DNA of 64,000 nucleotides from Escherichia phage vB_EcoM-P3322. Every line of letters starts with the position of its first letter. The first letter of the stretch is position 1. The stretch lies in sequence record PV191315.1. The stretch is one strand, 5' to 3'. The notes under the pieces were generated by a model, which had not been told where the DNA came from, searched no databases, and worked only from the letters and a program-made list of their open reading frames with translations. Positions 854-36,802 of this stretch are shown in pieces. Position numbers and translations under genes: made by a program.

Positions 854-1054
854 TCTTCCTCCTGTTCGGTATTATTCACCTGTGAGACACAATGTAACAC
901 AAGCTTTGTGAGTTTGTCAAGGATCTAATTACATTCTACAGAAGAAGAGGGTTAATAACTATAGGAATAGTCTTACTATAGGTGCAATACTAGTTAAGAG
1001 TTAGATTGATAGGTAAGATTTATCTTAAACGGATAATTGATAGGTGAGTCAGCA

Positions 1055-1112
1055 TTGACTTTTTCAAAAAAATATGGTACCCTAAACATATGTTTACGAG
1101 CGATAGCGAGTA
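1055..1112 (+). promoter_or_regulatory. conserved promoter-like element copy A (TTGACT-N17-TACCCT, short hairpin, CGAGCGATAGCGAGTA box)
   Basis: TTGACT 1055-1060, TACCCT 1078-1083, palindrome AAACATATGTTT, box 1098-1112; second copy at 36432-36489. Confidence 0.45.
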
Positions 1113-1213
1113 GTAGATTTCTATATAATAGTGTTTCATGTTACTCACGATAGTGAGGTATGAAACGTAAGTGAAGGTAGATAAACTATGATCATCTATC
1201 TACCATCTATTAA

Positions 1214-18979: not shown

Positions 18980-19007
18980 TTTACTTTCCTCATTATCGGC
19001 GGCACCA

Positions 19008-19064
19008 TTGCCGCCCTACGTGGTAAATATTAGCACACTGGCGATCTGTGTCAATACTTTTTAT
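19008..19064 (-). promoter_or_regulatory. promoter + 5' GC-hairpin module
   Basis: rc: TTGACA, 17-nt spacer, TAATAT, CACGTAGGGCGGCAATGGTGCCGCC. Confidence 0.55.
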
Positions 19065-20599: not shown

Positions 20600-20657
20600 G
20601 AGCGGCACCATTGCCGCCCTACAAGATACATATTACCAGATTAAGCGGACTTGTCAA
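20600..20657 (-). promoter_or_regulatory. promoter + 5' GC-hairpin module
   Basis: rc: TTGACA (20652-20657), TAATAT, TTGTAGGGCGGCAATGGTGCCGCTC. Confidence 0.55.
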
Positions 20658-21471: not shown

Positions 21472-21530
21472 GCGCGGCACCATTGCCGCCCTACACGATA
21501 ACTATAACACAATGTAAAACAGGGTCAACC
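21472..21530 (-). promoter_or_regulatory. promoter + 5' GC-hairpin module
   Basis: rc: TTGACC, TATAGT, TATCGTGTAGGGCGGCAATGGTGCCGCGCC. Confidence 0.5.
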
Positions 21531-22654: not shown

Positions 22655-22712
22655 AGCGGGAACTATTCCCGCCCTACGTGTAACAGTTTACTGAAAATTA
22701 AATCCGTGTCAA
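22655..22712 (-). promoter_or_regulatory. promoter + 5' GC-hairpin module
   Basis: rc: TTGACA (22707-22712), -10, CACGTAGGGCGGGAATAGTTCCCGCT. Confidence 0.55.
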
Positions 22713-25181: not shown

Positions 25182-25238
25182 GGCGGCACCATTGCCGCCC
25201 TACGTGATAAACTATACCAGAATTTTAAACAGTGTCAA
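25182..25238 (-). promoter_or_regulatory. promoter + 5' GC-hairpin module
   Basis: rc: TTGACA (25233-25238), 16-nt spacer, TATAGT, CACGTAGGGCGGCAATGGTGCCGCC. Confidence 0.6.
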
Positions 25239-25822: not shown

Positions 25823-25880
25823 AGCGGCACCATTGCCGCCCTACGTGGTAAATATTATGCCAGTGGCGGCGATATGTCAA
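25823..25880 (-). promoter_or_regulatory. promoter + 5' GC-hairpin module
   Basis: rc: TTGACA (25875-25880), 17-nt spacer, TAATAT, CACGTAGGGCGGCAATGGTGCCGC. Confidence 0.6.
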
Positions 25881-35909: not shown

Positions 35910-36118
35910 GTGGATGGATTAAAGTATCTGGTACCGAGGATGTTCCTATCGGAGAGTGGCTTGTAATCATGGCAAACGGCAAGAAGGGATTCTGTGAAGT
36001 TAACAAAACACGCAATGGCACGATAGCTGTTATCAATGGTCATTTTTATTTTGACTTGGCACCTGTGATCGCATACCATGCACTACCAACATATGAAGAG
36101 GAGATTAACAATGGCTAA
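35906..36118 (+). CDS. hypothetical protein
   Basis: 70-aa ORF. Confidence 0.45.
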   Translation: MSGWIKVSGTEDVPIGEWLVIMANGKKGFCEVNKTRNGTIAVINGHFYFDLAPVIAYHALPTYEEEINNG

Positions 36119-36428
36119 CAAAGAACCACATGTATATACTGCACTGGTAAAGCACTTGAACAAAGAACGTAACAGGATCATTGCAGATTATCGTAAATTT
36201 AAACGTAATAGTCTAAATCGTAAATACATGCCACATGCAGCTTTTGACGCTACACGTGCAGTATTTCGTGCAAAGATTGCGGAAATGGATAATCTGCTTA
36301 AGCTTGCACGATTATCTATTCATGCATCCAAAGTAACAGGAGTCACTCACTTCTTTGACTTCGATACTAAAGCACTATATGCACCAGAAGCAGGTGAACA
36401 ATTGATTTATCTACTTACCAAAAAATAA
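36111..36428 (+). CDS. hypothetical protein
   Basis: Start at ATG 36111 (MANKEPHVY) after GAGGAG RBS. Confidence 0.5.
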   Translation: MANKEPHVYTALVKHLNKERNRIIADYRKFKRNSLNRKYMPHAAFDATRAVFRAKIAEMDNLLKLARLSIHASKVTGVTHFFDFDTKALYAPEAGEQLIYLLTKK

Positions 36429-36431
36429 GTG

Positions 36432-36489
36432 TTGACTTTTTTCAAAAAATATGCTACCCTAACCCCGAAGGGTCGAGCGATAGCGAGTA
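36432..36489 (+). promoter_or_regulatory. conserved promoter-like element copy B
   Basis: TTGACT (36432-36437), 17-nt spacer, TACCCT (36455-36460), hairpin ACCCCGAAGGGT, box CGAGCGATAGCGAGTA. Confidence 0.5.
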
Positions 36490-36604
36490 TAGATTATGTA
36501 ATAGATTAATCTCTATCGTTAGATGTTCGAAGAACAGAGATTTAAGTACTTGTTCTTATCGGTAGATGATCGTAAGATCAAGAACAATAATAGGAGAGTG
36601 TGTT

Positions 36605-36802
36605 ATGTTAGTCAGTGAAATACTACCTGACTCTAATGGTAATCAGATCACTGTTGATTGGTTTCCTGGTACTGGTACACTAGATCTAACTGCTGAATGG
36701 TCTGGTGATATTTATGGAGAAGGTGTATTATCATTGTCTACAGAACAAATGATCATCCTTCGTGACTTCTTAATTAGTTTAGATCTAGGAGAAAACAAAT
36801 GA
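36605..36802 (+). CDS. hypothetical protein
   Basis: Start at ATG 36605 (MLVSEILPDS) after AGGAGA RBS. Confidence 0.45.
   Translation: MLVSEILPDSNGNQITVDWFPGTGTLDLTAEWSGDIYGEGVLSLSTEQMIILRDFLISLDLGENK

Follow-up and report, generated by a model that had tools for sequence, protein, structure and literature searches.

Two copies of a conserved element in the window

The 64,000-nucleotide stretch of Escherichia phage vB_EcoM-P3322 analysed here (PV191315.1, one strand, 5′ to 3′; hereafter the window) carries a short promoter-like element twice, at 1055–1112 (copy A) and at 36432–36489 (copy B). By megablast the window belongs to a Phapecoctavirus (Stephanstirmvirinae) with 98–99% identity to phAPEC8, dw-ec, ASO2A and others. 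It is 99% identical to phAPEC8, whose like have genomes of ~150 kb, and its plus strand corresponds to the minus strand in the phAPEC8 record (NC_020079). Small minus-strand genes, the early region, fill the window from 200 to 35,000, and from 35,063 a plus-strand array follows with genes for a helicase, ribonucleotide reductases, a primase and others. Copy A sits in a gap of 360 bp (854–1213) close to where the minus-strand early array ends, and is oriented against that array; copy B sits inside the plus-strand replication and nucleotide-metabolism array, directly after a conserved gene for a 105-aa protein. Host-type and "PHIRE" promoters are annotated in the phAPEC8 record, none of them at copy A or copy B, and the module of promoter and hairpin described below was previously unannotated in the GenBank records of these phages.

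Both copies consist of TTGACT, a 17-nt spacer, TACCCT, a short palindrome and an identical 16-mer, CGAGCGATAGCGAGTA (Table 1). These parts had been listed in the original prediction, a reading of the bare sequence, and inspection of both copies confirmed them. Between TACCCT and the 16-mer, copy A reads AAACATATGTTTA and copy B AACCCCGAAGGGT. Pairwise alignment of the two regions, which the prediction had proposed as a check, bore out the conservation and limited it to ~65–75 nt: the similarity extends a few bases beyond the box (TAGATT ... TAATAG) and then ends. At up to three mismatches the 16-mer has exactly two matches in the window, where 0.17 are expected by chance, and the 29-nt promoter part also has two, where 0.00 are expected. 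Copies A and B are real and far beyond chance.

Table 1. Positions of the module copies and of features around them (window coordinates unless another record is named).
Feature	Position	Strand	Basis and remarks
Copy A, whole module	1052..1122	+	match to family covariance model, 73.3 bits, E 2.7e-15
Copy A, -35 hexamer TTGACT	1055..1060	+	sequence reading
Copy A, extended -10, TGgTACCCT	1075..1083	+	hexamer TACCCT at 1078-1083; TG and TACCCT invariant in family alignment A4
Copy A, short palindrome AAACAT/ATGTTT (hairpin of the original prediction)	1084..1095	+	predicted start A1090 central
Copy A, box hairpin	1096..1111	+	RNAfold, covariation
Copy A, 16-mer CGAGCGATAGCGAGTA	1097-1112	+	sequence reading
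Copy B, whole module	36429..36499	+	match to family covariance model, 72.3 bits, E 4.9e-15
Copy B, -35 hexamer TTGACT	36432..36437	+	4 nt past the stop codon of ORF 36078-36428
Copy B, extended -10, TGcTACCCT	36452..36460	+	hexamer TACCCT at 36455-36460; sequence, alignment
Copy B, short hairpin ACCC-CGAA-GGGT	36462..36473	+	predicted start G36467 in loop; P ~0.01-0.02 against shuffles
Copy B, 16-mer CGAGCGATAGCGAGTA	36474-36489	+	identical to that of copy A; sequence reading
Copy B, box CGAGCGATAGCGAG	36474..36487	+	same hairpin core; flanking pair U/U, unpaired; sequence, RNAfold
Copy C	phAPEC8 NC_020079 57,858-57,928 (L005 7858-7928, +)	opposite to A and B	outside the window; 48 bits, E ~1e-9
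Copy C of muut	L146 14933-15005	-	before Prs-like and NAPRTase genes, tRNAs and structural genes
Putative sigma70-like promoter TTGACA-18-TACATT with TG, for gene 638-853	891..920	-	scan; back to back with copy A
Second hairpin, GUUUCAU ... AUGAAAC, inner ACUCAC/GUGAG	1133..1166	+ (palindromic, either strand)	RNA folding, comparison
Hairpin GGTAGATA ... TATCTACC	1176..1204		between copy A and the stop codon of gene 1214-1423
Leader hairpin TTGTTCTT ... AAGAACAA	36550..36587	+	directly before the ribosome-binding site
AGGAG-N8-ATG of the first gene after copy B (36605-36802, 65 aa)	36592..36607	+	sequence, annotation

The module occupies three syntenic positions in related phages

With copy B as query, blastn matched 133 phage records, at two places per record in Phapecoctaviruses and a few others and, at the sensitivity of blastn, at one place in Justusliebigviruses. 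Scanning metagenomes and IMG/VR for the pattern yielded many more, diverged copies, for a collection of 31 distinct sequences, 25 of which went into a covariance model (R1). This model matched only copies A and B in the window, with nothing else up to E=10, and found a third copy, C, elsewhere in the phAPEC8 genome (Table 1). The description of a two-copy element therefore holds for the window, and three copies are present per genome; the further copies that the original prediction had suggested seeking amount to this single one. Exactly three sites in phAPEC8 pair TGnTACCCTA with the box.

Copy C reads TTGACT, an 18-nt spacer, TACCCT, AGAAATCTATTAA, CGAGCGCAGCGAG and TTAAGG. It lies in a divergent gap of 470 bp at the head of gp005, the tRNA cluster and the genes for lysis, terminase and structural proteins. 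Its box, CGAGCGCAGCGAG, is the same in phAPEC8 and in the Justusliebigvirus muut; in phAPEC8 the flanks pair perfectly (UUAA/UUAA) and long pure-AT tracts follow downstream. All three copies are present at syntenic places in muut: copy B after the orthologue of window ORF 36078–36428, copy A, with TTTTACT as its -35 element, in the gap upstream (minus sense) of the orthologue of window ORF 638–853, and copy C as listed in Table 1. Copies in a clade resembling Klebsiella phages are orthologues of copy C, since they are flanked by orthologues of gp125/127/128 and gp267/124, and are followed by Prs-like and NAPRTase genes. A diverged copy B with box CGAGCGGGAGCGAG is found in phiWec190. By comparison of these lineages the module is kept at three fixed, syntenic positions, and it occurs in Phapecoctavirus, Justusliebigvirus, unclassified Klebsiella and Citrobacter phages and metagenomic relatives. 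Two weak matches of ~28–30 bits lie on unrelated contigs (L024 2275–2350, plus strand; L143 5839–5898, minus strand); in both, TGCTACCCTAA precedes a box hairpin whose flanks pair perfectly, and no clear TTGACT -35 element stands at the usual distance. Given these two matches, the module may reach beyond Stephanstirmvirinae.

The conserved columns have the layout of an extended -10 promoter

Across the family alignment, TTGAC, TG and TACCCT(A) are invariant columns and the spacer sequence drifts freely. Among 32 Stephanstirmvirinae copies the -35 element is TTGAC(T/A), or TTTTACT in the A copies of Justusliebig-like phages. The spacer is 17 nt long, or 18 nt in four copies (L134, phiWec190 B and both C copies), and TACCCT is followed by 12–15 nt and then the box. 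In both window copies TTGACT matches the -35 consensus TTGACA at five of six positions; TACCCT matches TATAAT at three of six, keeping the key A at position 2 and the T at position 6. A fixed spacing of 17–18 bp, a free spacer, invariant hexamers and the TG argue for a sigma70-type extended -10 promoter. This architecture, established by comparison, fits the "regulated promoter/leader class" of the original prediction: the -35 element, TGnTACCCT and the spacing are kept across two genera while the spacer drifts. We predicted start sites at A1090 and G36467 from the usual distance of 7 nt past the -10 hexamer; by eye, 15/16 variants have a pyrimidine 6 nt and a purine 7 nt past the hexamer. An alternative -10 element, TATGCT, which would make the short hairpin 5′-terminal in the RNA, was rejected: it lies 12 bp from the -35 element, and several relatives have no A at its position 2.

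The invariant GCTACCCTAA(A) also fits the sigmaS -10 consensus KCTAYRCTTAA (Weber et al, 2005, as quoted in PMC5650638) at 8–9 of 11 positions, including the C at -13 and the C at -8. A consensus -35 element and the TG are not needed at sigmaS promoters and are both present here, and copy A has a G at -13. SigmaS may thus be a further reader of the promoter.

The module shares several traits with the sigma70 extended -10 promoters of early genes in virulent coliphages, the phage's own PHIRE/MEME promoters among them: a -35 TTGAC(T/A), a 17–18 bp spacer, the TGn, A2 and T6 of the -10 hexamer, an A-rich upstream region at copy B and a 5′ stem–loop. It differs from them in the invariant, non-consensus TACCCT followed by AA, in a hairpin with an invariant tandem G·A motif where theirs is a plain GC stem, and in its number, since only three copies exist and head major units whereas the others precede many small early genes. 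The phage's own, commoner class was seen on the minus strand of the window between 17,689 and 26,729 as TTGACA-17-TAnAAT followed by a covarying GC stem–loop, GGCGGCAATGGTGCCGC or GGCGGGAATAGTTCCCGC (examples at 18999–19015, 20602–20618, 21474–21490, 22656–22673, 25183–25199 and 25824–25840); these are the "PHIRE promoters" annotated in phAPEC8. Their 5′ stem–loop is GC-rich and covaries (GGCGGCAAUGGUGCCGCC versus GGCGGGAAUAGUUCCCGC), and the annotated PHIRE 20-mer corresponds to the predicted 5′ hairpin of the transcript and not to the promoter. Judged from such comparisons, a promoter followed by a 5′ hairpin is a general layout in this genome, and the module of copies A, B and C is a distinct, rare class.

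A covarying hairpin on the plus strand follows the predicted promoter

The box, CGAGCGAUAGCGAG, is mirror-symmetric and has the form C-GA-GC-loop-GC-GA-G on the plus strand. It is predicted to fold through C1–G14, the tandem mismatches G2·A13 and A3·G12, G4–C11 and C5–G10 around the loop GAUA, with the tandem G·A in a favourable pyrimidine-GA-purine context. In copy A the corresponding pairs are C1097–G1110, the tandem G·A/A·G, G1100–C1107 and C1101–G1106, closed by A1096–U1111. What the original prediction had described as an identical box holds for the 16-mer; the box proper is itself a hairpin and, by covariation, better supported than the short hairpin before it. Its topology is the minimum-energy RNAfold structure in 7/8 lineages, and RNAalifold independently predicted it from seven Justusliebig-like A copies. 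Changes in length are confined to the apex, which reads GAA, GAUA, GAAA, GAAU, GCA or GGGA, and the pair C1101–G1106 (C36478–G36483 in copy B) is invariant in 34/34 copies.

The pair just outside the box was C–G in 13 copies, A–U in six and another combination in two in an alignment not fitted to the structure (n=21); in the alignment fitted to the model the counts were C–G 22, A–U 9, U–A 1 and other 2 (n=34). Both the C–G and the A–U state occur within the A lineage and again within the B lineage. In the unfitted alignment 65.6% of the cells pair, compared with 56.4 ± 1.7 in shuffles, and the covariation score is 0.248, compared with 0.119, with shuffles of related sequences overstating significance; registers slid by 1–3 columns all scored lower. 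Folding is more stable for the plus than for the minus strand (-5.0 versus -1.8 kcal/mol), and the -3/+3 pair is mostly U·G, which would be A·C on the other strand. The structure can therefore be assigned to the plus strand, the one that the promoter would transcribe. Rfam gave no match in the window at its gathering thresholds, and near the copies only chance-level scores (10–17 bits against cut-offs of 45–290).

A short palindrome surrounds the predicted start site

The short hairpin pairs positions 2–4 past TACCCT with partners 7–9 nt downstream. We tested it on a MAFFT alignment not fitted to structure (n=25). The outer pair was A–U in 22/25 sequences, the central pair C–G in 10, A–U in seven, U–A in five and other in three, and the inner pair C–G in 19/25. 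Overall 68% of the pairs form, compared with 58 ± 2.3 in shuffles, and slid registers reached at most 50%; the states of the central pair track three clades, so that about two independent double changes stand behind the counts. Tested singly, the short hairpin beats shuffles in 7/16 variants, both window copies among them. The C copies of phAPEC8 and muut lack it.

In every lineage the loop of this hairpin contains the predicted start, so that, provided the sigma70 reading is correct, the primary transcript cannot include the short hairpin. The compensatory change that the original prediction had noticed does exist, at the central pair; a place in the leader RNA would not fit a start inside the loop. 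Triloop hairpins of the form C-GAA-G or GTTC-GAA-GAAC recur, at 36525–36535 of the window and as start-site hairpins of many relatives, and theirs is the loop type of stable DNA mini-hairpins.

Surroundings of copy A

The gap around copy A does not overlap gene 1214–1423. The original prediction had placed the copy antisense to this membrane-protein gene; an RNA from copy A would first have to pass the hairpin at 1176–1204 to reach it. That hairpin is annotated as a minus-strand terminator in ASO2A, and a terminator scan found no T-run terminator at it; it is a possible end of a copy A transcript and/or a possible terminator of the minus-strand gene. The hairpin at 1133–1166 shows a compensatory change of its outer stem in phiWec190 (AUUGC/GCAAU), and the A copies of Justusliebig-like phages carry a counterpart, UUUCAUG-N5-CAUGAAA.

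On the minus strand, an ORF of 39 aa runs across copy A (1020–1139; gp264 in phAPEC8, ASO2A_058 in ASO2A). It contains stop codons in phiWec190 and is probably not a gene. We rejected a coding explanation of the module on this ground and on the position of copy B, which begins after a stop codon. No plus-strand ORF is conserved after copy A, an ORF of 64 aa (1188–1382) being reduced to 21 codons in phiWec190. The gene convergent with copy A encodes a 69-aa membrane protein in the window and in phiWec190 and an acidic soluble protein of 80 aa in muut. A type I toxin–antitoxin pair was rejected since this gene is not conserved and the predicted RNA stops short of it unless it continues past the hairpin at 1176–1204. 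Pairing between a copy A RNA and the copy B leader was rejected as well: the 9–11 nt of complementarity (36561–36571 with 1190–1204) are no better than in shuffles in three genomes.

Upstream, between copy A and the predicted minus-strand promoter at 891–920, lie direct repeats at 958–965/975–982 (ACTATAGG) and 1005–1014/1036–1045 (ATTGATAGGT), and related motifs (ACCTATCAA, ATTAATCGG) are found upstream of copy A in Justusliebig-like contigs. The repeats may form a candidate binding site for a regulator. The promoter at 891–920 suggests that the last ~13 genes of the minus-strand array are a separate unit.

Surroundings of copy B and genes near the module in relatives

In every lineage examined the upstream neighbour of copy B is the gene for a basic protein of 105 aa (36111–36428, plus strand; phrog_14778, function unassigned). 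The protein was found only on contigs of Stephanstirmvirinae size and has no match in Pfam. It was considered as a candidate reader of the module's hairpin; its AlphaFold model (pLDDT 82) shows a helical hairpin and a small beta hairpin, and a comparison of the model with the PDB gave nothing significant (best E=1.2, DksA-type factors at E of about 2). Downstream, the leader measures ~138 nt from the predicted start at 36467 to the ATG at 36605, shorter than the ~170 nt originally estimated. The leader hairpin at 36550–36587 is annotated as a WebGeSTer terminator in ASO2A, yet no T-run follows it; termination or attenuation in the leader was rejected as a conserved feature, since a U-run stands behind the hairpin in some lineages only. 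The first gene after copy B varies, encoding a soluble protein of 65 aa here and a membrane protein of 88–89 aa in other lineages.

Genes of NAD salvage adjoin the module in relatives (L067 2200–5100; L146 12026–14724; L009 2583–3070). Prs-like and NAPRTase-family genes directly follow copy C there, and in Klebsiella phage phi1_175008 NadR lies ~1 kb after copy B; the window phage has neither at the corresponding sites.

A proposed shared promoter and leader module and its alternatives

We favour, by a modest preference, the view that copies A, B and C are a conserved Stephanstirmvirinae module of a promoter and a 5′ stem–loop leader, which would act as a shared handle co-regulating three units. 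Host RNA polymerase with sigma70 would start ~7 nt past TACCCT, near 1090 and 36467, and the first ~30 nt of each RNA would fold into a 5′-terminal stem–loop capped by the box. This stem–loop would be a common cis-acting handle that protects the 5′ end from decay and/or gives access to one trans-acting factor, which might affect stability, translation or anti-termination of all three transcripts, and the three units would thereby be regulated together. Copy A has no gene to drive in this phage; its likeliest product would be a short, structured RNA, non-coding or antisense, that enters the early array at its 3′ end. Whether the hairpin works as RNA or as DNA, what it does and what copy A yields are inferences.

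Several observations weigh against this view. Both sites fall below the threshold of a generic sigma70 scan (8/12 hexamer matches), which omits them because TACCCT matches TATAAT at only three positions, and the pyrimidine–purine pattern at the start is confounded with the recurrent C-GAA-G loop. RNA folding yields only small energies, between -2 and -9 kcal/mol, which mostly lie within the range of shuffles, the Justusliebig-like A copies being the exception that beats them. Because the energies are mostly like those of shuffles with RNA and with DNA parameters, the case for structure rests on covariation and on the pattern of insertions and deletions; here the relatedness of the sequences means that shuffle controls overstate significance and that there are few independent compensatory events. 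In copy B of the window the flanks of the box are unpaired and RNAfold prefers another pairing. The loop variants suit the DNA mini-hairpin motif GCGN(N)AGC better than the GNRA rule of RNA, and a model confined to RNA cannot explain a covarying short hairpin that spans the predicted start. No factor that reads the hairpin was identified. A literature search found no paper on the transcription of phAPEC8-like phages, and with no transcriptome found for the group we infer promoter activity and the start site.

For copy A the original prediction had suggested an antisense or small RNA, and a dedicated small-RNA gene is a tentative possibility. Its product would be an RNA of ~115 nt, from ~1090 to ~1204, with three hairpins, acting in trans or as antisense on the 3′ end of the early array. 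The lack of a conserved plus-strand ORF downstream and the retention of copy A's position in two genera are consistent with this idea, as are the two hairpins past the start, which seven Justusliebig-like copies retain, each hairpin with one compensatory change, and the compensatory change in the outer stem of hairpin 2 between the window phage and phiWec190. Hairpins 2 and 3 (1133–1166 and 1176–1204), however, are palindromic, and since the 3′ UTR of the minus-strand gene covers both they may serve that gene as a terminator or as processing signals; hairpin 3 is not followed by a U-tract, complementarity to the copy B leader does not exceed that of shuffles, Rfam holds no match, and a convergent gene that differs between genera makes a fixed antisense target unlikely. 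A discrete copy A RNA of ~115 nt is plausible but not established.

The hairpins might instead act as DNA. The mini-hairpin GCGNAGC/GCGNNAGC is extraordinarily stable in DNA and much less so as RNA, and GCGN(N)AGC mini-hairpins occur at phage priming sites (the complementary-strand origins of G4, St-1 and alpha3), at ssiA and in N4 promoters (PMC13037366). The core of the box, GCGATAGC, fits this motif in both window copies, as do the cores of relatives (GCGAAGC, GCGAAAGC, GCGCAGC, GCGGGAGC), and with them 34/35 copies fit the motif described by Hirao and colleagues. The known mini-hairpins act in single-stranded DNA of ssDNA phages or plasmids or with a phage polymerase (the N4 virion RNA polymerase), whereas the motif stands here in a double-stranded DNA myovirus, directly past a predicted sigma70-type promoter. 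A second parallel is the ops element GGCGGTAGCGTG, which forms a small hairpin in the non-template strand in leaders of long operons and recruits RfaH (PMC5995543). The box matches ops at 9/11 positions over GCGxTAGCGxG, and shares with it a hairpin with a four-nucleotide loop closed by C:G (C3:G8 in ops), a place in the leader of very long operons and specificity for the sense strand. In ops, RfaH reads the bases G5 and T6 of the hairpin loop specifically, and T11, followed by G12, is the pause site. The substitution G5A abolishes RfaH recruitment to ops in vitro, and in vivo this change and T11G rank with the most severe defects (PMC5995543); the box has an A at the positions of both G5 and T11 (A-G for T11-G12). 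T6 is present in the box and absent from relatives with GAA or GCA loops, which have three-nucleotide loops and no flipped T. The box moreover lies only 6–9 nt past the predicted start, and its G·A and flanking pairs exceed the length of a transcription bubble. On these comparisons the box is not an ops site, and host RfaH is an unlikely reader because of the A at the G5 and T11 positions.

An elongation or anti-termination factor could still read such hairpins in the non-template strand much as RfaH reads ops, with the start-site hairpin of the C-GAA-G type and/or the GCGN(N)AGC box folding once the promoter opens; we consider this unlikely. The fit of the box core and of its variants to a motif that is weaker as RNA speaks for such a reading, as do the 9/11 match to ops with its equivalent C:G pair and loop, the position of copies B and C at the head of units of several tens of kb, and a short hairpin straddling the predicted start, possible only for a DNA strand. 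Apart from the A residues at the G5 and T11 equivalents, what counts against it is that the supported stem and flanks span 16–21 nt and exceed an elongation bubble of 10–11 nt, that the commonest state of one flanking pair, U·G (T·G), suits RNA better, and that folds with DNA parameters, which do not model the mini-hairpin motif, are no better than shuffles. Searching phAPEC8 by tblastn gave no RfaH- or NusG-like gene (best E=2.7), a weak test given the query sequences used. The stronger form of the idea, a phage-specific counterpart of ops in which the non-template mini-hairpin or its RNA copy loads a dedicated factor onto host polymerase at three sites, seems to us quite unlikely. The lambda-type nut sites (boxA and boxB, read by N) and the HK022 put RNAs also occur in few copies just past the promoters of long units. 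The module resembles them in having a small, conserved hairpin with a purine loop whose sequence is shared among the copies of one genome. It differs from nut in its loop of 3–4 nt with tandem G·A, where boxB has a 5-bp stem and a five-nucleotide GNRA-like (GNRNA) loop; no boxA-like CGCTCTTA lies within 60 nt of either copy, no N-like protein was identified, and copy A heads no genes. From put it differs in being much smaller.

Replication origins of phage T4 such as oriF and oriG are opened by transcription through an R-loop, and the modules could by analogy be origins or priming sites, where mini-hairpins hold the displaced strand and a primase–helicase loads. Such a role is very unlikely. 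GCGN(N)AGC mini-hairpins do occur at the G4, St-1 and alpha3 origins and at ssiA (PMC13037366), long pure-AT tracts follow copy C, each genome has several copies, a DNA-strand structure would account for the hairpin across the start, and the minimum of the cumulative GC skew of phAPEC8, at 136 kb, lies 1.5 kb from copy B. The skew, however, merely tracks gene orientation, and we rejected it as an origin marker; directly past copies A and B there is no AT-rich unwinding tract, copy B has no iterons, and nothing ties the replication proteins of the phage to the site. That the similarity is a neutral leftover of duplication, or a coding or minus-strand feature without function of its own, is most improbable. 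Most Phapecoctavirus genomes are 95–99% identical, so that conservation among them says little, and phAPEC8 has the 39-aa ORF annotated over copy A. Against this stand three syntenic sites kept across genera between flanks that cannot be aligned, hexamers and a box that are invariant while spacer and loop are free, a 39-aa ORF that is broken in phiWec190, and a structural signal specific to the plus strand.

Implications for the phage group

As a three-copy promoter and leader module that heads the replication and structural units, the element is a candidate switch for the timing of middle and late expression. Were it a phage counterpart of ops, the ~33-kb replication unit and the ~43-kb unit of tRNA and structural genes would be transcribed processively, and from copy A the same factor would drive terminator-resistant antisense transcription back through the early region that shuts the early genes off; if the hairpin is read as DNA, the ops/RfaH principle would reach into phages as well. 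Among isolates for phage therapy, Phapecoctaviruses and their relatives are common; their transcription programme is still unmapped, and the three short sites offer a testable handle on how genes may be ordered in a phage without an RNA polymerase of its own or a known sigma factor.

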